Below are positions 13,752 to 44,189 of a stretch of DNA of 64,000 bases, one piece after another; the first letter of the stretch is position 1, and each line of letters opens with the position of its first letter. Below the pieces are notes generated by a model. The model was not told where the DNA came from. It made no database searches and saw only the letters and a list, made by a program, of their open reading frames with translations. A program made the translations under genes and the position numbers. Source of the DNA: Potamolinea sp. (GTDB lineage Bacteria; Cyanobacteriota; Cyanobacteriia; Cyanobacteriales; Coleofasciculaceae); assembly GCA_042408245.1 (NCBI GenBank), contig JAYFMV010000019.1, forward strand, positions 3,511 to 67,510. The letters are read 5' to 3'.

Positions 13752-14035
13752 GGCTTGTTTGCCAATCTATACCAGCAGGCTATAAGGCCCTGGGGCTATA
13801 AAAACAAAGCCTGCCTACGCAGGCTTACAGTATAGTCCGCGTAGGCGGACTTCGTTCTTGTAGCCGCGACTTTAGTCGTTAGGCGTTTTTGCAAAATTGG
13901 GATGCAACCTTGACACTGGGCTCTGAGGGCTTGATATTCAACAAGGGAACTGCGAGCTTGTATCAAAGTCATCAAAGATACGAGCAGTGGTATGGTAGCA
14001 TTTGCCGTTAAATTAAGGTCTGGGAAGATAAATTC

Positions 14036-18915: not shown

Positions 18916-19160
18916 TCAGTTGTCAGTTGTCAGTTGTCAGTTGTCAGTTGTACAGCCCTACGGGCATGAAAAACGGTTGTCAGTTGTTATTTGTTGGTTG
19001 TGTAGGGGCGTAGCATTTGCTCCCAAATATTTAGGTATTACCGACCATCTAACAATCGCTTTTGCTACGCCCTTCCTGTCAGTGATCAGTGCTTCTGATT
19101 ATCAATTACCAATTACCAATTACCAATTACCAATTACCAATTACCAATTACCAATTACCT
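18915..19160. repeat. heptamer arrays (CAGTTGT)x5 and (CAATTAC)x8 plus the inverted copy of the 35-bp element seen at 17701-17735
   Basis: Direct reading. ttgtacagccctacgggcatgaaaaacggttgtcagttg (18943-18981) is the reverse complement of aaccgttttcatgcctgtagggctgtacaact (17697-17728). Confidence 0.85.
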
Positions 19161-22100
19161 GTTTTGAGCGAGACTTTGATTAATTTGCTCTAATAATTCG
19201 CTCATGGATTGGGAAGAACCTCGGAGAACTTTGGTAGCGAGGGTTTTTAACAGTGCATCTAGGCCAGAATTTGATTTTCTATTGTTAGTTTTACCTTGCT
19301 TTAAATGCGATGCTTTTGATGTCGCTATCGCTTCTCGAATGCTATCGCTATCTAATCGATGATCTAGCACAAGTATGGGTGGTAGCGTTTGCAGTCCAGT
19401 CAGAGAAAGCAGTTCATTCACCAGTGTTGAAGAGTCGTTAATATCTCTTAAACGAATCACCAGTAAGTCAACGCTTTGTTCTTGAAGTTGACGGTATACT
19501 TCTGTCCAAGAAGACGAAAGTAAGCTTCTAAAGCCAGCAGTTTGGAGGTATTGTATGAAAGCTGGGAGCCAGGAGGCTTGAGAAGTCGGGGTTGTGGAAA
19601 TTTTCGAGCTATCCCCTTCTCCCTGAGCACTCTCCCCAATAACCAAGGAGGGTTGAGGACATTGGGGAATTACCTCAGCTTTCTGGGTGCTGCGTTCTCC
19701 AATGTCCATCACAAGAATGCTGGGCTTGCTGGTCATCCCCACGGCAACTTGAATCACTTGCAATAAGGCAGGCATCTTGGAAGTGCGATCTGATGTTAAA
19801 CAAGGATATACAGTTAGTCCAGTGAGTTGATTTGCCGCCTCTGTTGTCTGGCGATCTAGCGTTACCAGTGGTAAAGAAGTCAAGGCCTTATAGAAGGAGA
19901 ACTCTTCCAAGAAGTTTAGGGGATCGGCAATTTCTACAGTGTCTAGTAAGATGACATCTGGACGCCAAATACGGCTCAATAATTCTGCCTGATCTAAATC
20001 ATCAGCTTCGAGTAATCGGTAATTGAGTTCTGAGTGCTGAACACTTAGGAATTCAGTGAATTCAGAACTGAGTATGGATGAATGAAAGCGCGTATCATCC
20101 CCAACTGGACAGAGGTGGAGAATTGTCAGATTGCTGCTAGTGGGAGGTGAGCTATCGCATAAACAATTCAGATTATGTAATAAGGCTTTTTCTTGCACTG
20201 GTAAGTTTAAGAAGCCATCAGCTTTGTGATGATAAGCCTGTTGTTTTTCTGCCTGTGTTGCTGTTACTAAGACGGGAATATGAAGAGTTTGGGCATCGGA
20301 TTTGAGTACTGTTAAGACATCCCAGCCGGAAAGTTGGGGTAAAAGAGGATTGAGTAAAATTGCACAGGGTTGGAAGCGGCGGGCTTTTTCGATCGCCTCT
20401 GTACCTGATCGAGCAATGATCACTCGATAGCCGAAACTCCTCAGTTGTTCCGTCAAACCTTCCAAATAGCGGGGTACAGTTTCAACAATTAACACCAAAC
20501 GGTTGTGGATGGAGCATTGAGGATTGGGGATTGGGATTTGGGTAATCTCGCCGTCCTCTTCTGAGTTTCCACTTGCTTGAGGAGGACAAGGTGGTAAGAG
20601 AAGGGTAAATTGACTTCCTTCACCTATTTTGGAAATAAAAGAAACATCGCCACCGTGTAAACGAGCAAGGCGTTGAGTTAAGACCAATCCTAAACCTGTT
20701 CCTTCAAAGCGACGGGTGAGGGGTTTTTCCAACTGTTGAAATTTCTGAAAAATCAAGTGCTGTTGCTCCGTTGGGATGCCAATGCCAGTATCCCAGACAG
20801 TGAAAGCAATCCAGCCTTCCCAACGACTGACTCTCAGACCTATTTCACCTCCCTCCTCTGTAAACTTGAGAGCATTAGAAAGTAGGTGCATCAACATTTG
20901 GCGCAGACGCAACTCATCGGCTACAAGAGTTTCTAGTCCCGGTTCGATCTCTAGGGTAAATTTTATTTCCTCTGGGGATTCTTCGTCTTGTGGCTCTTTT
21001 TCTGAGGGTCGTTGTAGCGCTTGAGAATAGGCGCGATCGCATACAGCCTGAACCTGCACCGGCTCCAAAGTCAGTTCCATCTGACCTGTTTCCATGCGAG
21101 TTAAATCCAGGATATCGTTGACCACGGCCATTAGCTGACGCCCACTTTGATAAATCAGTTTGGCATAGCGAGCTTGGCGATCATTTAGTTTCCCTAATGT
21201 CTGATCTTTCAGGAGCGTTGATAAACCCAAAACAGCAGTAAGAGGCGTCTTAAGTTCGTGGCTAATACAAGCTAAAAACTCATCTTTCAGTCGATTTAGT
21301 TGTACTAAATCGGCATTTTTTGCTGTCAATTCTTGGGCAACCTGTTGCTGTTCCGTGGTGTCTTGAGCTAGCACTAACCACAGATTAGTTGTTGGCGATT
21401 GGGAAGATTGATAGGAATTTGTCGAGGAATTTTCCCCAATTTCGTAGGATAGTTGTCCCGCCTGTCCTATCCAGTCTCTCTCTTTTAAAATAGACTTCGG
21501 CAGGGGAATTTTCACAAAAGAGAAGACGCGATCGATGCCATTTTTTCGCATTTCTGAAGCTGGTACGAAAGCCTCCCAAGCAGTTGGAGAATCTTGGAAG
21601 TTGAGCAGCGGTGGTTCTTCTAGGAGCGATCGCAATTGAGAAACCGTTGCAGCCATGCGGGGGGTATCAAGGGCACAGTAGCGTTCTCTAGCAGCTTGAG
21701 CAACAGGTTGATACTGCTGTTTTGTAACATTTCTCAGAGGATTGGGCGATGTCCTTCGGACAGGCTTCGTCAACCGAGAAGCGTAGGCTTCACCCAATCG
21801 CCCCACAGAAGCAGTCGCGGCGTTTTGTTGTTGTACACTGCTAGATTGGGTTGATTGCAGCTCACGCGCTGGAGCATCTAACCCAGGAGCAGGACTAAAT
21901 CTAATACAGCCCAGATTAGGCGATGTCCCAATCAGAGTCCGCCAAGTGAGATTTTCAGCCAGTATTTGCCCCGTAGAGGTTTGTATGCTTAGGGGTAAAG
22001 GCAGTTGTTCTAACAGTGGGACTAAAGAATTGAGCATCGCTGGTTCCGGTTCTTCCAGAGTACTCGCACCCACATCAGTTGCTGTTAGTTTTGGTGCCAA

Positions 22101-22622
22101 GGATTTTAAGAGCAAGCAAATGTTGAGCATTCCCTGAAACTTTCCTTCCCCATCTACCAAGGCCCAGTTCTCAGCAATAAGCCTTGGAGAGTGGGAAGAT
22201 GCGTCCATCCTTTTGCTTTCTTCCTCCCTAGTTGCCAATCCCCATTGCCCTTGATCTACTTCAGTCAGTCTCTCTCCAGACTTTTGTAAATATGCCCAGA
22301 ACTGTTCTAATTTCAGCTTTTCTGGTAGGATTACCAAAGGTTCAAGGAGCGGCGGATCTAGCTCAGAAAGAGGCTGGTGGAAATCAACAGAGGCGATCGC
22401 CACAGGAGTTTTCCCGTCATCAGCCGCTGGGAGCAGATAGGGCATTACCTGTCGCAGGTTGACCAATCCCAAGGGACGCTGCTGTTCGCTTACTACAACA
22501 ATTGCGTCACTCCCTGAAGACCTAAAAATCTCCAGCACGTCAGCGATACCACAAGTTGGTTCACAAACAGGAATGGCTTGAGCAAATTCTTTTAAGCTGG
22601 GAGTTGGCATTAACATGACCAT
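19155..22622 (-). CDS. multidomain hybrid sensor histidine kinase with three degenerate (pseudo-)receiver domains
   Basis: HisKA H-box EFLACISHELKTPLTAV and HATPase_c (G-box GTGLGLVLTQ). Three CheY-like folds follow in which the phospho-Asp position is not conserved, e.g. AILLNPLLPQLSGWD. Divergently transcribed from kaiA. Confidence 0.8.
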   Translation of the reverse strand: MVMLMPTPSLKEFAQAIPVCEPTCGIADVLEIFRSSGSDAIVVVSEQQRPLGLVNLRQVMPYLLPAADDGKTPVAIASVDFHQPLSELDPPLLEPLVILPEKLKLEQFWAYLQKSGERLTEVDQGQWGLATREEESKRMDASSHSPRLIAENWALVDGEGKFQGMLNICLLLKSLAPKLTATDVGASTLEEPEPAMLNSLVPLLEQLPLPLSIQTSTGQILAENLTWRTLIGTSPNLGCIRFSPAPGLDAPARELQSTQSSSVQQQNAATASVGRLGEAYASRLTKPVRRTSPNPLRNVTKQQYQPVAQAARERYCALDTPRMAATVSQLRSLLEEPPLLNFQDSPTAWEAFVPASEMRKNGIDRVFSFVKIPLPKSILKERDWIGQAGQLSYEIGENSSTNSYQSSQSPTTNLWLVLAQDTTEQQQVAQELTAKNADLVQLNRLKDEFLACISHELKTPLTAVLGLSTLLKDQTLGKLNDRQARYAKLIYQSGRQLMAVVNDILDLTRMETGQMELTLEPVQVQAVCDRAYSQALQRPSEKEPQDEESPEEIKFTLEIEPGLETLVADELRLRQMLMHLLSNALKFTEEGGEIGLRVSRWEGWIAFTVWDTGIGIPTEQQHLIFQKFQQLEKPLTRRFEGTGLGLVLTQRLARLHGGDVSFISKIGEGSQFTLLLPPCPPQASGNSEEDGEITQIPIPNPQCSIHNRLVLIVETVPRYLEGLTEQLRSFGYRVIIARSGTEAIEKARRFQPCAILLNPLLPQLSGWDVLTVLKSDAQTLHIPVLVTATQAEKQQAYHHKADGFLNLPVQEKALLHNLNCLCDSSPPTSSNLTILHLCPVGDDTRFHSSILSSEFTEFLSVQHSELNYRLLEADDLDQAELLSRIWRPDVILLDTVEIADPLNFLEEFSFYKALTSLPLVTLDRQTTEAANQLTGLTVYPCLTSDRTSKMPALLQVIQVAVGMTSKPSILVMDIGERSTQKAEVIPQCPQPSLVIGESAQGEGDSSKISTTPTSQASWLPAFIQYLQTAGFRSLLSSSWTEVYRQLQEQSVDLLVIRLRDINDSSTLVNELLSLTGLQTLPPILVLDHRLDSDSIREAIATSKASHLKQGKTNNRKSNSGLDALLKTLATKVLRGSSQSMSELLEQINQSLAQNR

Positions 22623-22935: not shown

Positions 22936-23853
22936 TTGCATCCCCAACTGACTATCTGTACGTTTGTGCCTTCCGAATCCCTGACTCAGTCGTTGAGTCA
23001 GTTTTTGAGCAGCGAACGCTATATCTTGCACATCACTGTTTCAGAATCCGAGTTTTTCGAGTTTGTGGATCGACACAAGCAGCAGCTTGATTGTTTGGTT
23101 GTACAGGATGAACACTCATTATTGCCAGTACTCAACCGACTATACGAGCAAGGAACGCTGCTACCTGTTGTAATTTTTCCCCAGGAATTGGTAGAAGTCA
23201 CGTCTTGCGTTGCTAGCAATCAAGAGATCGAAACCAGTCAGACGCTGAATGAGGCCGAGGTGGCCAAATTAAATCATCTGTTCCATGCCGCTGAAGTCCG
23301 AGTCAATACTACCCAATTGCCTGAGATTAGGAGCTTTATTGAAAAAGCGATCGCTCAGTTTGTCTCTCTTTCTCCGGCCTATACCTTTCCCGATTGGTCT
23401 ACCACTGTCGAGCGCCAAACCGATCTGACCCCTAATAGTTTCCTCATCCAGCAGCAGTACCGATTATCTGAAAAACTCAAGGAAAGACTTGGATACCTGG
23501 GTGTGTATTACAAAAGAAATTCCCAGCTTTTTTTACGTAATCTAGCTCCAAAGCAAAGAGAAAAGCTTTTAGAAAAATTAAAATTCGGGTATCGTCAGAT
23601 CGTTTTAAAGTATTTTTCTCAAGAAGATTCCCTTAATCAACAAATCGATAGCTTTGTCGAGCAAGCATTTTTTGCTGATATTCCAGTCTCTAGGGTTGTG
23701 GAAATCCATATGGAACTAATGGAAGAATTCGCCAAGCAGTTGAAGCTAGAAGGGAGAAGCGAGGAGGTGTTACTAGATTATCGACTGACCCTGATCGATG
23801 TTATTGCTCACCTGGGCGAAATGTATCGACGGTCTATCCCTAGAGAGTTATAA
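22936..23853 (+). CDS. kaiA: circadian clock protein KaiA (full length, with N-terminal pseudo-receiver)
   Basis: The N-terminus is colinear with Synechococcus KaiA: LTICTFVPSESL vs IAICIWVESTAI, and KQQLDCLVV vs RDQIDCLIL. C-terminal HMELMEEFAKQLKLEG..LIDVIAHLGE. Gene order kaiA-kaiB-kaiC. Confidence 0.85.
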   Translation: MHPQLTICTFVPSESLTQSLSQFLSSERYILHITVSESEFFEFVDRHKQQLDCLVVQDEHSLLPVLNRLYEQGTLLPVVIFPQELVEVTSCVASNQEIETSQTLNEAEVAKLNHLFHAAEVRVNTTQLPEIRSFIEKAIAQFVSLSPAYTFPDWSTTVERQTDLTPNSFLIQQQYRLSEKLKERLGYLGVYYKRNSQLFLRNLAPKQREKLLEKLKFGYRQIVLKYFSQEDSLNQQIDSFVEQAFFADIPVSRVVEIHMELMEEFAKQLKLEGRSEEVLLDYRLTLIDVIAHLGEMYRRSIPREL

Positions 23854-23992
23854 TACAAACCTTTAGCTATCAGCTTTTAGCGCTAAGCTTGAAGAAAGCT
23901 CTTAAATTTACCTAGTTTTTGAGTTGATTTTCGGATGACCTTGTATTCTTAACCTGTATACTTGCTGATTGCTTATAGCAACTTACAAAATT

Positions 23993-24307
23993 ATGAGTCC
24001 GTTAAAAAAAACTTATGTTCTCAAGCTTTATGTAGCTGGAAACACTCCCCACTCTATTAACGCTTTGAAAACACTTAAAAACATCCTAGAACAAGAATTT
24101 CAAGGAGTTTACGCCCTAAAAGTGATTGATGTCCTAAAAAGCCCACAGCTAGCTGAGGAAGACAAAATCTTGGCTACACCAACTTTGTCCAAAGTCTTAC
24201 CTCCACCTGTCCGAAAAATCATTGGTGACCTTTCGGACAGGGAAAAAGTTTTGATAGGCTTAGATCTTCTTTATGAAGAACTGCGAGAAGAGGAATTAGA
24301 TTTTTAG
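23993..24307 (+). CDS. kaiB: circadian clock protein KaiB
   Basis: [49 protein letters not shown] is near-identical to KaiB. The upstream in-frame M at 23969 is unlikely to be the start. Confidence 0.95.
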
Positions 24308-24386
24308 TTAAACGTCCAAGACTATAGTAGAGTAGCCTTGAATATTCTAGTCAAACCATTGGGTCTGATTAGAGAAAAAACTTTTT

Positions 24387-25964
24387 TTGACAATAACAGA
24401 AAACATGAATCAATCTAAAAAAACTGAACAAAAGCCTGACACTTTAACATCGGTAGGAGTCCATAAAATAAGGACGATGATCGAAGGTTTCGATGATATT
24501 AGTCATGGAGGTTTACCGATTGGGCGCACCACCATCGTCAGCGGAACATCTGGCACCGGAAAAACGCTGTTAGCGATTCAGTTTCTCTATAACGGAATTG
24601 CCTATTTTGATGAGCCTGGTGTATTTGTAACTTTTGAAGAATCTCCCACAGATATCATTAAAAATGCTTACAGTTTTGGTTGGGATTTACAACAATTAGT
24701 TAATGATGGCAAGCTATTTATTTTAGATGCCTCACCAGATCCAGAAGGACAAGAAGTTGTCGGAAACTTTGACCTTTCTGCCTTAATTGAACGCATTCAA
24801 TACGCCATTCGTAAATATAAAGCCAAGCGAGTTTCTGTTGATTCAATTACTGCAATCTTTCAACAATACGATGCTGCTTCAGTAGTAAGAAGAGAGATTT
24901 TTCGCTTAGTTGCACGTCTCAAACAAATTGGCGTGACAACAGTAATGACAACAGAAAGAGTTGAGGAATATGGTCCAGTAGCCAGATTTGGAGTGGAAGA
25001 ATTTGTCTCCGATAATGTGGCAATTGTTCGTAACGTCCTAGAAGGGGAACGTCGTCGTCGTACCATAGAAATTCTCAAGCTGCGTGGTACAACCCACATG
25101 AAGGGCGAATACCCTTTTACTATGACTAACCAGGGTATTAATATCTTCCCGTTAGGAGCAATGCGCTTGACTCAGCGTTCTTCCAATGTTCGCGTATCTT
25201 CAGGTGTTGAAACTCTTGATAAAATGTGCGGTGGTGGTTTTTTCAAAGATTCAATTATTCTGGCAACTGGTGCTACTGGTACTGGCAAAACTTTGCTGGT
25301 TAGTAAGTTTATCGAAAATGCTTGCTCGCGAGGCGATCGCGCTATTCTTTTTGCCTATGAAGAATCTCGCGCTCAGTTGTCTCGTAATGCTTATTCCTGG
25401 GGTATTGATTTTGAGGAAATGGAACAAAATGGTCTACTAAAAATCCTTTGCACTTACCCAGAATCATCAGGACTAGAAGACCATTTACAAATTATTAAAT
25501 CGGAAATTGCTGAATTTAAGCCTTCTCGAATTGCGATAGATTCCCTTTCTGCTTTAGCGCGAGGAGTTAGTAATAACGCTTTCCGGCAATTTGTGATTGG
25601 CGTTACTGGTTATGCAAAACAAGAAGAAATTACGGGATTTTTCACTAATACTACTGACCAGTTTATGGGGTCTAATTCAATTACAGATTCTCATATTTCC
25701 ACGATTACTGACACAATTTTGATGCTGCAATACGTGGAAATTCGCGGAGAAATGGCTCGTGCTATCAACGTTTTCAAAATGCGTGGTTCTTGGCACGATA
25801 CAGGTATTCGTGAGTACACTATTAGTGAAGATGGGCCAGATATCAAGGATTCATTCCGCAACTACGAAAGAATTATCAGTGGTTCTCCCACTCGTATTCC
25901 TGTGGATGAAAAGAGCGAACTTTCCCGAATTGTTCGAGGTGTACGCGAAAAATTAGAGGAATAA
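24387..25964 (+). CDS. kaiC: circadian clock protein KaiC
   Basis: Duplicated RecA-like domains, Walker A GTSGTGKT and GATGTGKT, C-terminus SFRNYERIISGSPTRIPVDEKSELSRIV. Colinear with S. elongatus KaiC along its length. Confidence 0.97.
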   Translation: MTITENMNQSKKTEQKPDTLTSVGVHKIRTMIEGFDDISHGGLPIGRTTIVSGTSGTGKTLLAIQFLYNGIAYFDEPGVFVTFEESPTDIIKNAYSFGWDLQQLVNDGKLFILDASPDPEGQEVVGNFDLSALIERIQYAIRKYKAKRVSVDSITAIFQQYDAASVVRREIFRLVARLKQIGVTTVMTTERVEEYGPVARFGVEEFVSDNVAIVRNVLEGERRRRTIEILKLRGTTHMKGEYPFTMTNQGINIFPLGAMRLTQRSSNVRVSSGVETLDKMCGGGFFKDSIILATGATGTGKTLLVSKFIENACSRGDRAILFAYEESRAQLSRNAYSWGIDFEEMEQNGLLKILCTYPESSGLEDHLQIIKSEIAEFKPSRIAIDSLSALARGVSNNAFRQFVIGVTGYAKQEEITGFFTNTTDQFMGSNSITDSHISTITDTILMLQYVEIRGEMARAINVFKMRGSWHDTGIREYTISEDGPDIKDSFRNYERIISGSPTRIPVDEKSELSRIVRGVREKLEE

Positions 25965-26089
25965 TTTCCTACTTCCGGGAAGCCAGTACATTGATCTTCC
26001 TGAACTGTTAAAACGTCTACACCTCGCATACGCAACCCAGCAGTAATTGCTCGGTGTATGTGTTCATCCATGTAGAAAGCTAGACTCAC
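25862..26089 (-). pseudogene. DUF5615 (PIN-like/Mut7-C) fragment, probable truncated toxin remnant
   Basis: The first ~35 codons (MDEHIHRAITAGLRMRGVDVLTVQED) match DUF5615. The remainder runs antisense into the kaiC 3' end with no family similarity. It is immediately downstream of its usual partner DUF433. Confidence 0.4.
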
Positions 26090-26430
26090 TTCAATAGTCC
26101 CTGTGTCCGTAGTCTAACAACAAAAGGAGATTCGCCTGCTTCTTTGCATAACTTTTGGGCATATTCTCCTCGTCGCTGGATATCTAGATCAAGTTCCTCT
26201 TTGTTATCCCAGTAATAAGCTAATGCTGAATAAATTTGGCTCATTGTTAAATAGGGATGTTGAAATTGTAACTCTTCAGGACTCCAACCATAGGCGATTT
26301 GAGCCATTACTAATTCAACTACTTTCATCGTAGTTCCAGCAATGATTGGGACATTACCTTCATTCAGTTGTACATATTTATGGGGAGTCGTTATAGATGT
26401 CATTATTATCTGTCTGATTTGATTCCTCAA
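26086..26430 (-). CDS. DUF433 domain protein (antitoxin-like partner of DUF5615)
   Basis: 114-aa ORF with a DUF433-like core. Its stop overlaps the DUF5615 start. Confidence 0.65.
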   Translation of the reverse strand: MRNQIRQIIMTSITTPHKYVQLNEGNVPIIAGTTMKVVELVMAQIAYGWSPEELQFQHPYLTMSQIYSALAYYWDNKEELDLDIQRRGEYAQKLCKEAGESPFVVRLRTQGLLK

Positions 26431-26471
26431 TTGTAATTATCGCCTTTCCTCTCTCGTCATCAGTCACAACC

Positions 26472-26768
26472 TTAGTTTCGCAAAATATACTGACTAATAA
26501 CTTCTTTAAGTTCTTGAGGTGCTTCAATGGCTATAGCTGCTCCCAAATCAGGACGCACAACCCACCACCAAACTAAGGTTTCCATCTGATTGGGTGGCTC
26601 TTCATTGGGACACCATTCGATAGACGATTCATTCACGCCAATAATATTGGCACACAGGTCATTGGCGATGGTGACACGTTCATCAAGTTGCTCAAACTGT
26701 ATGATGTCTTGCCACTCAACTTGATTGGGAATTGAATTTAAAATTGATTGTACGTCTATGGTAAGCAT
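26472..26768 (-). CDS. small acidic protein, candidate immunity protein for the upstream nuclease
   Basis: 98 aa. Its start overlaps the nuclease stop as TAATG, indicating translational coupling. No recognisable family. Confidence 0.45.
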   Translation of the reverse strand: MLTIDVQSILNSIPNQVEWQDIIQFEQLDERVTIANDLCANIIGVNESSIEWCPNEEPPNQMETLVWWWVVRPDLGAAIAIEAPQELKEVISQYILRN

Positions 26769-27178
26769 TAAACTATACCTCCAAAAGCTTTAATAACTCT
26801 CATACCAAAGTCTTGTTGTTCTTCAAAAGATTGAGTACTCAGCCATTCTCTAACCGTGATATTTGTTGATTCAGTTAGATTAGGTTGTACAGAGTTGTAG
26901 AAGTTGGTGATTTCCTGATGAATTGAACCTTTTCCATGTGCAAGTCGGACGAGATTACCTGTATTATGAATGGCTTCAACTCCAAATCTTTGTAGATTTG
27001 AGGTAGTTTGCCCGACAATATGATGCCAAGCTTGTCCTGTACCAGCAGCACCCATTGTTCTTTTAAATTCACCAAATGTTTTAAAGCCTTGACCAGACCT
27101 TTTAGGGGGAATTACTGCTCTTAATTCTAGTTCTCTAGCCAGTTGTCTAGCTATCTCCTGTCTGGTTTCGTCTGTCAC
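26768..27178 (-). CDS. standalone HNH/EndoVII-fold nuclease of the WHH type (polymorphic-toxin-like module)
   Basis: GQAWHHIVGQ...GVEAIHNTGNLVRLAHGKGSIH, i.e. W-H-H, then N and a distal H in HNH spacing. GTG start, with a TAA stop directly upstream in frame. Confidence 0.6.
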   Translation of the reverse strand: MTDETRQEIARQLARELELRAVIPPKRSGQGFKTFGEFKRTMGAAGTGQAWHHIVGQTTSNLQRFGVEAIHNTGNLVRLAHGKGSIHQEITNFYNSVQPNLTESTNITVREWLSTQSFEEQQDFGMRVIKAFGGIV

Positions 27179-27236: not shown

Positions 27237-28865
27237 TTAAAAAGGGCGATTATCACGCAGAATTTGCAGATTCTTACGGATGGTAACAGTATTGGGATGA
27301 TTTGTTCCTAATCTTCGTTGGGCAATCTCTAAAGCTTGCAGATACAAAGGTTCAGCTTCAGTGTAGCGTCCTTGAGATTTGTAGAGACCTGCCAAGTTGT
27401 TGAGACTGGTAGCGACAGCGGGATGGTCTTCTCCCAGAAGGCGTTTTGTCAACTCTAAAGCTTGCAGATACAAAGGTTCAGCTTCAGTGTAGCGTCCTTG
27501 AGAATTGTAGAGACCTGCCAAGTTGTTGAGACTGGTAGCGACAGCGGGATGGTCTTCTCCCAGAAGGCGTTTTGTCAACTCTAAAGCTTGCAGATACAAA
27601 GGTTCAGCTTCACTGTAGCGTCCTTGAGATTCGTAGAGTGCTGCCAAATTGTTGAGACTGGTAGCGACATTGGGATGGTCTTCTCCCAGAAGGCGTTTCC
27701 ACAACTCTAAAGCTTGCAGATACAAAGGTTCAGCTTCAGTGTAGCGTCCTTGAGATTTGTAGAGGTATGCCAAGTTGTTGAGACTGGAAGCGACATCGGG
27801 ATGGTCTTCTCCCAGAAGGCGTTTGGTCAACTCTAAAGCTTGCAGATACAAAGGTTCAGCTTCAGTGTAGCGTCCTTGAGATTTGTAGAGGTATGCCAAG
27901 TTGTTGAGACTGGAAGCGACATCGGGATGGTCTTCTCCCAGAAGGCGTTTGGTCAACTCTAAAGCTTGCAGATACAAAGGTTCAGCTTCAGTGTAGCGTC
28001 CTTGAGAATTGTAGAGACCTGCCAAGTTGTTGAGACTGGTAGCTAAATCCTCCTCTAAACCAAACTCTTTTTGTAAATCAATTGCTTTGCCAAGATACTG
28101 GATTGCTAGAATTTGTTCCTGCTGATAATCCTGCGATTCTCCCTGGTCTAATCTTTTTTTATAAATGCTTCCCATTCTGAAATAAAAATCCGCCAAACTA
28201 GGGTCTTTTTTCCCCCTTTGCTGTTCAATTTTTCTAATTAATTCCTGCAAGTCTTTTAGGGGTATCAACGAAGTGCCATCTTCATCTGTACCCAAGAATT
28301 TCTGTTCTTCTGGAGTCAAGCGTAAGTCAGTAAATTCTTTCCTTAAAACTGCACTTCTCTTTTTAGAAGCAAACCGAAAAACACCCTTGCGCCAACTCCA
28401 AAAATCCAGAGCTTTTTTACTCAAACTTGCCTGAATTTGATTCGTCATCCAGATCACAATTGGAAAAGGAAACTCTCGCATTCCTTCCCGCGTCCACTGT
28501 AAATAACCGAAAAAAAGATCTTGCTCTGAGCGTTTTTCACCAAGTTTCAAAAAGTAAAACTGCTCGATACCCGTCACCGTCAAAACCGCTTGTCCACCCT
28601 GACGCAGATACTCATCTTTTGCCACTAACTCAGCAATAGCCGCCCTCAGACTAGGTTCCCTGCGTGCTAATGTTACCCGATAGGGACGCATCTCTGGCTG
28701 CAATTCTGCCTCATATCGTTGAATTATCTGCTCACGGAAATCAAGCTGATCACATACTGCAATCAACAAGCTCAACTTTCCCTGACTTGCTTCAATTGAA
28801 ACCAGCAAATCATCATAACTATCTTCATTTTGATCTGTCGTATCTGGGAAAGATTGAGTGTCCAT
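27237..28865 (-). CDS. TPR (kinesin-light-chain type, TPR_10/12) repeat protein with uncharacterised 280-aa N-terminal domain
   Basis: Six near-identical 42-aa repeats LNNLAxLYxSQGRYTEAEPLYLQALELTKRLLGEDHP. The start ATG abuts the upstream ATPase stop (TAAATG). Confidence 0.8.
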   Translation of the reverse strand: MDTQSFPDTTDQNEDSYDDLLVSIEASQGKLSLLIAVCDQLDFREQIIQRYEAELQPEMRPYRVTLARREPSLRAAIAELVAKDEYLRQGGQAVLTVTGIEQFYFLKLGEKRSEQDLFFGYLQWTREGMREFPFPIVIWMTNQIQASLSKKALDFWSWRKGVFRFASKKRSAVLRKEFTDLRLTPEEQKFLGTDEDGTSLIPLKDLQELIRKIEQQRGKKDPSLADFYFRMGSIYKKRLDQGESQDYQQEQILAIQYLGKAIDLQKEFGLEEDLATSLNNLAGLYNSQGRYTEAEPLYLQALELTKRLLGEDHPDVASSLNNLAYLYKSQGRYTEAEPLYLQALELTKRLLGEDHPDVASSLNNLAYLYKSQGRYTEAEPLYLQALELWKRLLGEDHPNVATSLNNLAALYESQGRYSEAEPLYLQALELTKRLLGEDHPAVATSLNNLAGLYNSQGRYTEAEPLYLQALELTKRLLGEDHPAVATSLNNLAGLYKSQGRYTEAEPLYLQALEIAQRRLGTNHPNTVTIRKNLQILRDNRPF

Positions 28866-30152
28866 TTAAATGTGTCCTCTTTCTTGCAGCAGTTCAGTCA
28901 CAATCGGGTGAACATCGTACCAAAGTTTAGCATTCCTATACTCTAAAATATACAAGCCATGTAGTAAATCCAGAAACTTTTGTTCTTTCGGATCATTGGG
29001 TCGAGATTCCTTGTAAGTTGTTTCTAAAATCTGGTAATCATCTGTACCAATCCGAGTATCGAAATCAAGACTGAGTTTAGTAATAGCTTCCTTGAGAATT
29101 GCCTCATTGATTTTAATATCAGTACGTTCAGGGTAACGCCGAACTAAGCGTAGGCAAATCCGACAACATTCATTGGCAATTCTGATTAACTCCCGCAAGA
29201 CTCCACCGCTATAAATAATAATTTGCTGGGCTGTTTGTTCTTCAATCAATTCATGGGTGAGCCGTTTGTTGAGAATTTCGCAAAGCCTTGCGGTTGGTTC
29301 GGCTTTTGGGACAGCATTCGGTTGACGACGTTCTCCCATAGCAAAGAGTTTTGAGACTGGCATGGGGATAATTTGATTATTCGTCTCTGTCTCAATCAGA
29401 GACATCAGAGAAACTTCTCTTAAGGCAGCAATAGGTATGGTAAAAATAATCCTAAAGTTAGGTTGAAATAATGCCTTAATATGCTCTTGGAATACTTCTC
29501 TTACCAGTTCCAAGTCTAATTTATCTAAGTCGTCAATAATAACCACAATATCTTGATTTGTTGCTGCATAAACAACAGCAGCAATTTCATTGATGCGAGC
29601 AATTAAATCAGAGACTTTGCGGGCAAATTCTTGCTTAATTTCGTTACGAGTAGAGGCATCTGCTTTGAGCTTACCAGAAATTAGTTTGAATAAATTAAAG
29701 CCAACCGAACCTTCAGCTTTGTACTCTTCTGTTTTAATCTGAGTCCGATTAGCAAACCATTGATAAAAAGCATCTTTAGTTGTTTGTTTAATGTTGACTT
29801 GCCGTTTTTCTGCTTGCTCCATGAGGCGAACTGCAATGGCAAAAAGAATATTAATATGATTGACATCTGACATTTCAATCATGTCGGAAATTGAGAAAAT
29901 GACAACAAAATATCTGTCCCCAATTCGCCGACTCAACTCAGAAAGTAAGGTAGATTTACCACAGCCACGATGACCTGTGAAAACAATTTTTCCGTCACCT
30001 GAAGGACTATCTTCAACCAGTTGTTCTAGTTCTTCAATAACTTCAGTACCGTACTCTACTTTAAATTTTTCTAATTCTTTTTGCTCCAAAAGTGGCAGCA
30101 ATTCCAAGTTTCTGTAGGCTTCTCGAAAAGACTCTAATAATTCGTTAGGCAT
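28866..30152 (-). CDS. P-loop NTPase, STAND/AAA_16-like
   Basis: Walker A GHRGCGKSTLL, Walker B IVVIIDDLDKLD, then a helical C-terminal half. Co-transcribed with the TPR gene. Confidence 0.75.
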   Translation of the reverse strand: MPNELLESFREAYRNLELLPLLEQKELEKFKVEYGTEVIEELEQLVEDSPSGDGKIVFTGHRGCGKSTLLSELSRRIGDRYFVVIFSISDMIEMSDVNHINILFAIAVRLMEQAEKRQVNIKQTTKDAFYQWFANRTQIKTEEYKAEGSVGFNLFKLISGKLKADASTRNEIKQEFARKVSDLIARINEIAAVVYAATNQDIVVIIDDLDKLDLELVREVFQEHIKALFQPNFRIIFTIPIAALREVSLMSLIETETNNQIIPMPVSKLFAMGERRQPNAVPKAEPTARLCEILNKRLTHELIEEQTAQQIIIYSGGVLRELIRIANECCRICLRLVRRYPERTDIKINEAILKEAITKLSLDFDTRIGTDDYQILETTYKESRPNDPKEQKFLDLLHGLYILEYRNAKLWYDVHPIVTELLQERGHI

Positions 30153-30222: not shown

Positions 30223-30690
30223 GAAGTCCGACACCCTCAAGGGTGCGGCTACCTGAACAAAGTCCGCCTGCGCGGACTAAATGCCCAAGACTTGTGATAG
30301 CCTGCGTAGGCAGGCTTGGTTCCTGTAGCCCCAGGCTTAAGCCTGCGGGGCTTTTGAGCAACTAAATGCCGAACAATGGTGATCTAAGCCCGACACCCTC
30401 AAGGGTGCGGAACCACACGAACAAAGTCCGCCTGCGCGGACTAAATGCCCAAGACTTGTGATAGCCTGCGTAGGCAGGCTTGGTTCCTGTAGCCCCAGGC
30501 TTAAGCCTGCGGGGCTTTTGAGCAACTAAATGCCGAACAATGGTGATCTAAGCCCGACACCCTCAAGGGTGCGGAACCACACGAACAAAGTCCGCCTGCG
30601 CGGACTAAATGCCCAAGACTTGTGATAGCCTGCGTAGGCAGGCTTGGTTCCTGTAGCCCCAGGCTTCAGCCTGCGGGACTTTGATGAGAA
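30223..30690. repeat. three tandem copies of a ~163-bp unit rich in internal hairpins
   Basis: Units start at 30223, 30386 and 30550. Copies 2 and 3 are near-identical. Internal palindromes include caccctcaagggtg, gtccgcctgcgcggac, agcctgcgtaggcaggct and caggcttaagcctg. The last copy overlaps the final 8 codons of the MVP homolog. Confidence 0.9.
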
Positions 30691-43997: not shown

Positions 43998-44189
43998 ACA
44001 AATTCCCGCAGCGTCGAGTCCCTGGGGCTACGGAAACAAAGCCTGCGCAGGCAGGCTTAAAATTTTGTTGGTATTTAGTTCGCTGACAACCAGGAAAGTC
44101 ATAGGTTGCAGCTTACTAGATGCGTTTGCTTGCCACTATACGAGTAACTCAATAACTCAATAAATAACCAGTCGTAGTTACTAATTGAA

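Follow-up and report, generated by a model that had tools for sequence, protein, structure and literature searches.

Positions 27237..30152 of the DNA analyzed here (the window, a 64,000-nucleotide stretch of a Potamolinea sp. contig) hold two adjoining genes, which current databases annotate only as "ATP-binding protein" and "tetratricopeptide repeat protein". They raise the question of whether a STAND NTPase has been separated from its sensor repeats, as an earlier note on this DNA had proposed, or whether the two products form a machine of another kind. A search of the literature returned no experimental study of any family member. With a probability of roughly 60%, we favor the reading that the two genes are an AAA+ module that is old and has been passed on vertically, as opposed to a recently split immune STAND, and that their products form an ATP-driven heteromeric switch in which TPRs provide the scaffold.

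Organization of the gene pair

The interval holds the gene pair described in the earlier note; it is fully occupied by two open reading frames, both on the minus strand.

28866..30152, minus strand: gene 1, predicted active AAA+ ATPase of 428 residues (core at residues ~36 to 265, lid at ~284 to 339, winged helix at ~350 to 428)
27237..28865, minus strand: gene 2, partner of 542 residues with a predicted pseudo-AAA+ N-domain, a helical linker, and a kinesin-light-chain-type TPR array (from the reading frame, Pfam, and profile matches)
28863..28880, minus strand: gene junction, with AGAGGA at 28875..28880, a 9-nt spacer, and TAA/ATG with zero gap (direct reading)

The minus strand reads ..CAC ATT TAA ATG GAC.. 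at the junction, confirming the TAAATG arrangement noted previously, with 0 nt separating the ATPase stop codon from the partner start codon and the Shine-Dalgarno-like AGAGGA placed 9 nt 5' of the partner ATG. Across 83 related loci, the genes overlap in 49 and are 0 to 60 nt apart in 7; since gaps of 61 to 1373 nt separate them in 27 (Microcoleus, Okeania, Trichodesmium), translational coupling is not universal, and gene 2 would usually, to judge from this spacing, be translationally coupled to gene 1. An apparent in-frame fusion of ATPase and partner in a Pseudanabaena locus (L028) was rejected, as the two genes there are separated by a stop codon and 9 nt of spacer.

Gene 1 encodes a predicted ATPase of the ORC/Cdc6-STAND assemblage

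The motifs of the ATPase were assigned as follows.

29949..29975, minus strand: Walker A motif GHRGCGKST (residues 60 to 68)
29523..29546, minus strand: Walker B motif VVIIDDLD (residues 203 to 210)
29433..29456, minus strand: FRIIFTIP, strand β4 with the sensor-1 position (residues 233 to 240; a strand at 233 to 240 in the model)
29181..29210, minus strand: lid motif SGGVLRELIR with the sensor-2 position (residues 315 to 324; from conservation)
28905..28967, minus strand: winged-helix motif LLHGLYILEYRNAKLWYDVHP (residues 396 to 416; modeled as a helix at 391 to 398 followed by a β-hairpin at 402 to 414)

Both Walker motifs are thus present as the earlier note had given them, and their conservation is directly observed. 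Gly65 and Lys66 do not vary among 60 homologues, the most distant at 24% identity, nor do Pro240, Arg297, and Gly317 over the same range, within which Asp210, Lys211, Thr238, Gly316, and the winged-helix residues Leu396, Leu397, Glu404, Tyr405, Trp411, and Pro416 are at least 90% conserved. Asp207, Asp208, and Asp210 are invariant in 30 cyanobacterial orthologues, and in the lid the cyanobacterial orthologues share Ser315, Gly316, Gly317, Val318, Arg320, Glu321, and Arg324 without exception. Arg245, a candidate box VII arginine finger located after sensor 1, is invariant in the 30 cyanobacterial orthologues but unconserved in the wider family. Approximately 30 residues before Walker A, at the position of the hhGRE motif, the wide-family consensus is FYVxR; the ATPase of the window reads FKVEYG there and lacks the arginine.

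Among Pfam families, AAA_16 (PF13191) was matched at residues 38 to 214 with 41.5 bits (cut-off, 32.6) and KAP_NTPase (PF07693) with 34.3 bits (cut-off, 20). In KAP NTPases, the P-loop domain is interrupted by transmembrane helices; reading of the sequence by eye revealed no hydrophobic segment of transmembrane length at residues ~99 to 198, an insert that is predicted to be helical or disordered and is strongly charged. Of the resemblance to NACHT/AAA_16 suggested earlier, the AAA_16 part stands, whereas NACHT stayed below threshold (19.3 bits versus 26.7). NB-ARC was absent among the Pfam families reported at E ≤ 0.01, and iSTAND (PF19995; 17.4 versus 24) and DAP3 (17.8 versus 23.1) were sub-threshold. 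The NCBIfam model of the Sll1717 family of P-loop ATPases (NF047389) aligned with residues 51 to 361 and scored 34.3 bits versus a cut-off of 75; by sequence, the ATPase would be at most a distant relative of that family.

A fold search with the ATPase model gave archaeal Cdc6/Orc1, PABY2304, and TnsC as best matches, followed by CED-4 and NLRs; a sequence search of the PDB returned marginal matches only, the RFC lid and TnsC at ~1e-4. The model displays the build of STAND proteins, in which a helical lid and then a winged helix come after the P-loop core, and equally the AAA+ core with C-terminal winged helix that marks the ORC/Cdc6 initiator clade, from which the best fold match comes. The superstructure-forming repeats that STAND proteins carry on the same chain are missing: the ATPase stops after the winged helix, at residue 428, so that the earlier description of an NTPase without sensor repeats of its own was correct, and in 83 of 86 loci the repeats likewise reside on a separate downstream gene. 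On its motifs and its confidently predicted fold, the ATPase is predicted to be a catalytically competent AAA+ protein of the ORC/Cdc6-STAND assemblage; its core, with its long helical insert, leads into the lid and then the winged helix.

These features bear on the idea of a nucleic acid-associated AAA+ machine resembling ORC/Cdc6, TnsC, or MuB, in which the winged helix and the helical insert would bind DNA and the TPR partner would recruit factors. No C-terminal feature of the family is better conserved than the winged-helix motif, and a conserved arginine, Arg169, is found in the stretch inserted between the two Walker motifs; genes for replication, transposition, or repair, however, are not conserved near the pair, and we regard this idea as quite improbable.

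A predicted AAA+ fold without P-loop in the partner N-domain

The features of the partner are the following.

28266..28865, minus strand: N-domain (residues 1 to 200), predicted AAA+-fold core without P-loop
28746..28769, minus strand: LLIAVCDQ (residues 33 to 40), end of strand β1, where the Walker A loop is expected
28485..28514, minus strand: invariant helix FFGYLQWTRE (residues 118 to 127)
28371..28406, minus strand: DFWSWRKGVFRF (residues 154 to 165), with Arg159 directly before strand β5 (from predicted secondary structure and conservation)
27240..28055, minus strand: TPR array (residues 271 to 542), six TPR_12/TPR_10 units from about residue 270 (Pfam)

The earlier note had assigned the 280-residue N-terminal domain to no recognized family, and residues 1 to 240 indeed match no Pfam family even at E ≤ 10; structurally, however, the N-domain is predicted with high confidence to adopt an AAA+ fold that lacks Walker A. 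Each gene would therefore carry one AAA+ module, one active and the other degenerate. In the partner model, the strand at residues 32 to 38 runs straight into the helix at 41 to 55; Cys38 and Asp39 are invariant in orthologues, and GxxGxGK[ST] is absent. Within the invariant helix, Phe118 and all residues from Gly120 to Glu127 are unchanged in 40 orthologues, and its arginine (Arg126) is retained in distant partners, where the motif reads WTRE, IQRE, or LKRD. The sequence PDFWxWR/PDFWHIR, and with it Arg159, is kept in partners of ATPases that are just 29 to 34% identical. In classical AAA proteins, the arginine finger lies directly before strand β5; from its position in the predicted secondary structure, we infer the same role for Arg159.

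Descent of the N-domain from a recent duplication of the ATPase was considered and rejected, as hhalign gave a probability of 0.1 and the likeness is one of fold only. A search of the PDB with the partner profile placed all of the matches listed at profile positions ≥229 (TPR and linker) and none in the N-domain core, and Pfam iSTAND had no match on the N-domain. The N-domain defines a domain family outside Pfam coverage, and once it is recognized as a P-loop-less AAA+ module, two hitherto anonymous genes can be studied as a candidate heteromeric machine.

The TPR array resembles that of a neighboring NB-ARC-TPR gene

The C-terminal part of the partner matches Pfam TPR_12 with E = 7e-107 and TPR structures of kinesin light chain with profile E values of 1e-57 to 1e-72. 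At the DNA level, a 126-bp tandem repeat of 5.8 copies with 94% matches (TRF) extends over 27318..28043. The comparison includes one further gene.

33801..35801: true NB-ARC-TPR gene, ~6 kb from the pair

This gene holds its own 126-bp tandem repeat (4.9 copies at 90%), and the 3' 786 bp of the partner gene are 87% identical in DNA sequence to its positions 33806..34590, a likeness that exceeds the identity of repeat type reported in the earlier note. Repeat turnover and exchange with the NB-ARC-TPR gene mark the array, as in NLR-like proteins.

The pair is conserved and co-inherited

Of 86 fetched loci, 83 have the partner gene immediately downstream of the ATPase gene and in the same orientation, the remaining three being contig ends. 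A relative of the ATPase is encoded by at least 546 species genomes, and the pair is present in at least several hundred cyanobacterial species, including members of Nostoc, Microcystis, Trichodesmium, Microcoleus, and Pseudanabaena; across cyanobacterial orders, the ATPase is 62 to 96% identical. A TPR gene next door is retained even for ATPase homologues at 40%, 34%, and 29% identity, and the N-domain is recognizable in these partners (hmmsearch E values of 4e-53, 2e-16, and 6e-19, respectively). Co-inheritance is directly observed: the pairwise distances of ATPase and N-domain correlate with r = 0.93, a value reached by 0 of 999 permutations. The window contains no paralogue, and no relatives were found in the viral contigs searched. 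The tight pairing asserted in the earlier note has held up, and the objection that it might not be conserved fails because the pair is tightly and very widely conserved.

A natural fusion of N-domain and ATPase is also directly observed, as a variant rarer than the separate gene pair. One protein (P0293), whose gene immediately follows that of a stand-alone ATPase, combines the N-domain (E = 7e-25) with an additional, intact copy of the ATPase; another (P0377) shows the same architecture and is truncated by its contig. Two further candidates (P0257 and P0348), in which the ATPase core is joined straight to the middle of the N-domain with internal deletion, were set aside and are treated as deletion products or assembly chimeras. 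A single chain of ATPase, N-domain, and TPRs was not seen, every protein among the matches listed matching TPR families only. With the two-gene form kept down to 29% identity and no single-chain form among the matches listed, a recent splitting of a STAND protein is not borne out.

This conservation also bears on the reading of the pair as a two-piece NLR-like immune sensor, in which the TPRs would sense an invader protein and the pair would oligomerize and activate an effector that is encoded elsewhere, or the oligomer would itself be toxic. The near-identical internal TPR repeats and their kinship with a bona fide NB-ARC-TPR gene speak for it, as does a distant homologue (P0345; 31% identity) with an N-terminal TIR_2 domain (5.5e-24), even though this homologue is followed by a zinc-ribbon protein instead of an N-domain-TPR partner. 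TIR domains are a hallmark of conflict systems, and this homologue keeps a conflict role possible. Diversifying immune STANDs, on the other hand, are usually not 62 to 96% identical across orders, and such high conservation speaks against a typical, rapidly evolving immune sensor, as does occurrence in so many species.

Neighboring genes vary between lineages

Two further features of the window were considered.

30666..33335, minus strand (that of the pair): major vault protein (MVP) homologue, between the NB-ARC-TPR gene and the pair
36481..36900, plus strand: GIY-YIG/UvrC-N-like ORF (weak match)

The flanks of the pair vary even among relatives of 86 to 89% identity, and the nearby MVP, NB-ARC-TPR, and GIY-YIG genes are not among its conserved neighbors. 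Clustering of flanking ORFs yielded lineage-specific synteny only, with housekeeping genes, and a third conserved gene of the module was rejected on this basis. The separate nuclease of the earlier note found no backing: the only candidate is the weak GIY-YIG ORF, which lies 6.3 kb from the pair on the opposite strand with two unrelated genes between, and which is absent from all three closely related loci that reach that far upstream. Members of a large Ser/Thr-kinase family, encoded on one side of the pair or the other in 32 loci, were considered to be background.

Eukaryotic vaults contain TEP1, a NACHT-type NTPase, and the MVP homologue on the strand of the pair suggests a bacterial vault to which the pair would be tied as a TEP1-like STAND partner. 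MVP is, however, missing from all 86 other loci holding the pair, three other cyanobacterial MVP loci share no neighbors with the window (neither ATPase nor TPR nor NB-ARC genes), and between MVP and the ATPase gene lies a 513-bp spacer built of three 164-bp repeats rich in hairpins; a vault operon was rejected, and any functional tie to MVP appears most improbable.

Directly before the pair, 12 Nostocales loci carry ndhC-ndhK-ndhJ, with psbE/F, ycf48-like, and rubredoxin genes close by, and in 12 Microcoleus loci rbcL-rbcX-rbcS adjoin it. Such neighbors, along with the housekeeping-like conservation of the family, are what might be expected if the pair used ATP to assemble or maintain a large cyanobacterial complex, e.g., a photosynthetic or respiratory one, much as TPR assembly factors do together with AAA+ remodelers; the TPR proteins Ycf3, Ycf37, and Pitt are photosystem assembly factors. 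These neighborhoods are lineage-specific, however, being absent here and in most other lineages, and homologous pairs at 34% and 29% identity lie on contigs without nearby photosynthesis genes, which leaves this specific role unlikely.

The same housekeeping surroundings, which are not defense islands, weigh against the NLR-like sensor. Neither protein contains an effector domain, and the comparison of flanking ORFs showed none conserved nearby. PADLOC-DB v2 gave no significant match for the pair: the best ATPase matches were weak and mostly confined to part of the P-loop domain (VakA, 35 bits, residues 55 to 127 only; PifA, 24; mad8, 22), and the partner matched generic TPR models only. Two-gene operons of active and eroded STAND proteins are known from conflict systems (PMC8195603), and an immune sensor of this kind is possible, at somewhat long odds.

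Proposed mechanism and cellular role

We propose that the two proteins assemble via their AAA+ modules into a hetero-oligomer, in which the ATPase would provide nucleotide-dependent switching. The pseudo-ATPase would dock on the ATPase and may donate Arg159 (DFWSWR) and/or Arg126 to its nucleotide site, while the expandable TPR array may recruit at least one client protein; assembly or release on the TPR scaffold would then be governed by the binding or hydrolysis of ATP. Of the earlier proposal of a STAND architecture split across genes, the ORC/Cdc6-STAND build and the placement of TPRs on the next gene are retained; an active AAA+ protein with a pseudo-AAA+-TPR partner takes the place of an NTPase severed from its repeats.

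As to function, we lean toward a conserved cellular (regulatory or assembly) role, at slightly better than even odds, because of the 62 to 96% identity, the lack of a paralogue in the window, the ndhCKJ and rbcLXS neighbors, and the lack of a significant PADLOC model or viral relative; phage defense is given about a quarter of the weight and other roles, e.g., a DNA-associated one, about a fifth. More specifically, and only tentatively given the long odds, the pair might constitute a cyanobacteria-wide heteromeric STAND-like switch of an active AAA+ and a pseudo-AAA+-TPR subunit that gives a trans-acting arginine, serving a core cellular process rather than immunity. If so, TPR-STAND proteins would have arisen from an unfused ancestral state that the pair preserves, or the pair would be an immune module co-opted for housekeeping, and the N-domain would be a new, unannotated pseudo-ATPase family. 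A cellular role would make the pair a missing piece of cyanobacterial cell biology; a defensive one would make it an unusually conserved, effector-less NLR-like system.

Comparison with known systems

The closest operon design is that of Kaur, Burroughs, Iyer, and Aravind (2021; PMC8195603), in which active and eroded STAND NTPases with conserved arginines are predicted to form hetero-multimers. There, too, a STAND/AAA+-type module is found in both of two neighboring genes, and in one of them the NTP-binding motifs are eroded; that family, however, is nearer to Dap3, RNA12, and CR-ATPases, is mobile, and has the inactive module fused to GT4 or HEPN effectors, whereas the inactive module here is fused to TPRs, inheritance is conserved and tracks taxonomy, and DAP3 is sub-threshold. 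The iSTAND and iSTAND2 proteins, third components of MoxR-vWA ternary conflict systems (PMC7159879, PMC8195603) and common in cyanobacteria, similarly employ an inactive STAND-like module as a non-catalytic component. They differ in that the partner here is an AAA_16-type ATPase and that the N-domain has no Pfam iSTAND match, and neither MoxR nor vWA genes were found among the annotated neighbors or recurrent neighbor clusters of the pair.

The "archaeal ATPase" family (PF01637; PABY2304, 2qen; SSO1545, 2fna) is set apart by an ATPase_2 score below the cut-off (22.8 versus 33.2), and, unlike this family and Cdc6/Orc1, the present ATPase has an obligate pseudo-AAA+-TPR partner. NSF/α-SNAP and other AAA+ proteins with TPR-like adaptors belong to a different AAA+ clade, and the adaptor here is itself AAA+-built; homology is not claimed. 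In Anabaena PCC 7120, the All4982/All4981 operon comprises a studied TPR filament-former and its upstream partner, with 4-bp ATGA overlaps and a third upstream gene (PMC7002697), a geometry unlike that of the pair. It was rejected as a characterized orthologue: the published all4981, all4982, and all4983 primers were absent from the fetched loci (≤3 mismatches), and the peptides they encode from all family proteins. Resting on primers and operon geometry, this indirect comparison suggests that the two systems are not orthologous.

With STAND proteins bearing TPR sensors (NB-ARC-TPR, MalT/AfsR), the pair shares the P-loop core, helical lid, and winged helix, and kinesin-light-chain-type TPRs, the neighboring NB-ARC-TPR gene even having a near-identical array. 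It differs from them in that its repeats lie on a separate polypeptide with a degenerate AAA+ core of its own, that it has no effector domain, and that NACHT is sub-threshold and NB-ARC unreported at E ≤ 0.01. Compared with the usual TPR-STAND sensors, the pair is far more conserved and far more uniform in phyletic spread, and, whichever its role, it is relevant to the way in which separate parts come together as STAND architectures.

Gene layout of the pair and its surroundings

The interval 27237..30152 is wholly taken up by two minus-strand open reading frames (ORFs), encoding an ATPase and, downstream, a partner protein with a TPR array. At their junction the coding strand reads CAC ATT TAA ATG GAC, so that stop and start codons abut, and AGAGGA is located 9 nt 5′ of the partner ATG, within the 3′ end of the ATPase gene. 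The earlier note had described a split pair joined at TAAATG, with Walker motifs in the first member; this description, in which the strand was unstated, was borne out.

Features of the pair and of its surroundings in the window
19155..22622, minus: hybrid histidine kinase, 1155 aa (CBS, HisKA, HATPase_c, receiver), adjoining the kai cluster
22936..25964, plus: kaiA-kaiB-kaiC circadian clock cluster (KaiA and KaiC by Pfam)
26086..27178, minus: three small ORFs downstream of the pair (136, 98, and 114 aa)
27237..28865, minus: partner gene, downstream member of the pair (542 aa)
28866..30152, minus: ATPase gene, upstream member of the pair (428 aa)
30224..30682: 164-bp tandem repeat, 2.8 copies, 97% matches, in the MVP-ATPase spacer
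30666..33335, minus: full-length major vault protein (MVP) homologue, 889 aa (Vault x4, Vault_2/3/4, MVP_shoulder)
33801..35801, minus: NB-ARC-TPR gene, a genuine STAND by Pfam (666 aa from a TTG start)
35916..36299, minus: 127-aa ORF just upstream of the NB-ARC-TPR gene, no NCBIfam match
36481..36900, opposite strand to the pair: GIY-YIG-like ORF, weak match

Predicted folds of the ATPase and its partner

The ATPase contains a Walker A motif, GHRGCGKST (residues 60 to 68), and a Walker B motif, VVIIDDLD (residues 203 to 210). In Pfam it scored above threshold for AAA_16 (41.5 bits) and KAP_NTPase (34.3 bits), and below threshold for NACHT (19.3), ATPase_2, DAP3, and iSTAND. Among NCBIfam profiles, only the Sll1717 P-loop family was matched, near full length and below threshold, and PADLOC gave only weak matches, mostly partial and to P-loop domains. 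The AlphaFold2 model, for which 30 orthologues served as input, was predicted with confidence (pLDDT 80.7, pTM 0.80) and features an AAA+ core with five strands, a long, helical, and partly disordered insert between Walker A and Walker B, a helical lid bearing SGGVLRELIR, and a C-terminal winged helix. On account of this predicted core, lid, and winged-helix build, the ATPase is placed in the ORC/Cdc6-STAND assemblage of AAA+ proteins, outside NACHT and NB-ARC.

In the partner, Pfam recognizes six TPR_12/TPR_10 units starting at about residue 270, and its profile matched TPR structures of kinesin light chain at 1e-57 to 1e-72. Residues 1 to 240 gave no Pfam match even at E ≤ 10, nor is there a sequence-level relative of them in the PDB. 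The model of residues 1 to 270, likewise confident (pLDDT 89.5, pTM 0.86), displays five units of alternating strand and helix, after which come TPR-like helices. At the expected P-loop site, strand 1 (LSLLIAV) leads through an invariant Cys-Asp directly into helix 1, and GxxGxGK[ST] is absent. Because this strand-helix core lacks a P-loop, the N-terminal domain (N-domain), which the earlier note had assigned to no recognized family, is most likely a pseudo-ATPase. Most conserved within this domain are the invariant helix FFGYLQWTRE (residues 118 to 127) and the segment DFWSWRKGVFRF (residues 154 to 165), in which Arg159 immediately precedes strand 5 and would occupy the position that the arginine finger takes in classical AAA proteins. 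A recent duplication as the origin of N-domain and ATPase was ruled out, since hhalign found no sequence similarity between them.

Conservation and coupling of the pair

More than 1400 ATPase relatives were found in 90% clusters, the best 120 of which are cyanobacterial or unnamed, approximately 428 aa long, and 62 to 96% identical. When one genome was scanned for each species, at least 546 genomes proved to encode a relative; the 80 loci kept are nearly all labelled cyanobacterial, with a few from "uncultured bacterium" and one from Sericytochromatia. Named N-domain matches derive from Nostocales, Oscillatoriales, Microcystis, Xenococcaceae, Phormidesmis, and others, possess TPRs in every case, and range from 330 to 640 aa in total length. 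Of 86 fetched loci, 83 have the N-domain gene as the next gene downstream, in the same orientation; the remaining three reach a contig end after no more than a few hundred bases. The two genes overlap in 49 of the 83 (by 1, 4, 11, or 23 nt), are spaced by 0 to 60 nt in 7, and by 61 to 1373 nt in 27 (Microcoleus, Okeania, Trichodesmium). The proteins are co-inherited: their pairwise distances correlate with r = 0.93, a value reached by 0 of 999 permutations, with the N-domain evolving slightly faster (mean distance of 0.38 versus 0.32 for the ATPase). Beyond the pair, no synteny with the window was detected, not even where the relatives are 89% and 86% identical. Recurrent adjacency to ndhCKJ (Nostocales) and rbcLXS (Microcoleus) hints at a role in photosynthetic complexes, although these adjacencies are lineage-specific.

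A search of 1.84 billion representatives returned 2287 ATPase relatives, many of them full-length (400 to 440 aa) with 24 to 35% identity. In an alignment of 60 wide-family relatives, G65, K66, P240, R297, and G317 are invariant, and T238 and the winged-helix residues L396, L397, E404, Y405, W411, and P416 are at least 90% conserved, a pattern that fits a functional ATPase in which the winged helix has an important role. A TPR gene immediately follows ATPase homologues of 40%, 34%, and 29% identity; these partners contain the N-domain (hmmsearch, 4e-53, 2e-16, and 6e-19, respectively) and keep PDFWxWR/PDFWHIR and the R(E/D) helix. The N-domain is linked directly to the ATPase family by protein P0293, a single chain combining it with a second, intact ATPase copy, whose gene overlaps a stand-alone ATPase gene upstream; P0377 has the same architecture and is contig-truncated. 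On the short metagenomic contigs carrying such fusions (L093, 1369..3150; L097, 1..1449), no TPR was seen.

A distant homologue of 31% identity (P0345; locus L089, 55..1719) bears an N-terminal TIR_2 domain, and the next gene encodes a 168-aa Cys-rich, zinc-ribbon-like protein in place of the TPR partner. This TIR fusion, the NLR-like repeat dynamics, and a precedent in print for two-gene operons that pair an active STAND with an eroded one speak for a possible origin or role in conflict. A typical immune sensor, however, is argued against by the very high conservation, the wide species presence with ATPase identity dropping from same-family to other-order matches, the housekeeping neighbours, the absence of an effector, and the lack of viral matches or of PADLOC matches beyond weak, mostly partial ones.

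Neighbours in the window

The MVP gene lies upstream of the pair on the same strand. A Potamolinea sp. MAG encodes a protein 100% identical to its product, labelled there as a "colicin uptake protein", and relatives of 75 to 95% identity are found in many filamentous cyanobacteria; bacterial MVPs were reported previously (PMC3762200; bioRxiv 10.1101/872010). None of the other loci with the pair (86 fetched) contains MVP, and the MVP loci of Allocoleopsis, Planktothricoides, and Oxynema (three genomes) have unrelated neighbours; the adjacency is thus coincidental, and MVP was rejected as a functional neighbour. The 513-bp spacer between MVP and the ATPase gene is composed of the 164-bp hairpin-rich repeat (2.8 copies), each unit of which contains several short hairpins rich in GC, among them AGTCCGCGCAGGCGGACT followed by TTGTTCG (minus strand). 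Diverged copies occur at 13772..13867 and 44021..44057. The repeat is probably a dispersed element and may act as a terminator.

The NB-ARC-TPR protein starts almost at its P-loop, without an N-terminal effector domain, and a Pro/Thr/Ser-rich low-complexity linker precedes its TPRs. A 126-bp tandem repeat is present within both this gene and the partner gene, and the two share 87% DNA identity over 786 bp covering TPR arrays and C-termini (27242..28026 versus 33806..34590). This identity points to a recent exchange or gene conversion between the arrays, or to KLC-type TPR arrays of unrelated genes evolving in concert within one genome. The earlier note's "separate nuclease", presumably the GIY-YIG-like ORF, did not hold up: the ORF is a weak match, lies far from the pair on the other strand, and is absent in close relatives whose loci extend far enough upstream.

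The kai cluster, in which a 112-aa ORF between kaiA and kaiC is presumably kaiB, is located 1.3 kb from the pair's end on the opposite strand; its adjacency to the pair is not conserved elsewhere. Of the small ORFs, which may form a toxin-antitoxin-like cassette, the 136-aa and 98-aa ones share an overlap of 1 nt and match no family, and the 114-aa one bears DUF433. Nostoc sp. HK-01 has a PIN/PhdYeFM pair at the equivalent position.

Proposed mechanism and comparison with known systems

The best-supported reading is that the pair forms a heteromeric AAA+ switch, in which active ATPase and pseudo-ATPase-TPR partner would join via their AAA+ modules, possibly with an arginine acting in trans. 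ATP binding or hydrolysis would determine which state the complex adopts, and the TPR array, variable in length through repeat gain and loss, would recruit clients as a putative scaffold.

A literature search found no published description of this pair, and the All4981/All4982 operon, which has been studied experimentally, seems to be another locus. Combinations of an active AAA+ protein with an inactive one, and of STAND proteins with TPRs, are already known in general; the apparent novelty lies in this family, in its pseudo-ATPase domain, which lacks annotation, and in a two-gene form that is nearly invariant across cyanobacteria.
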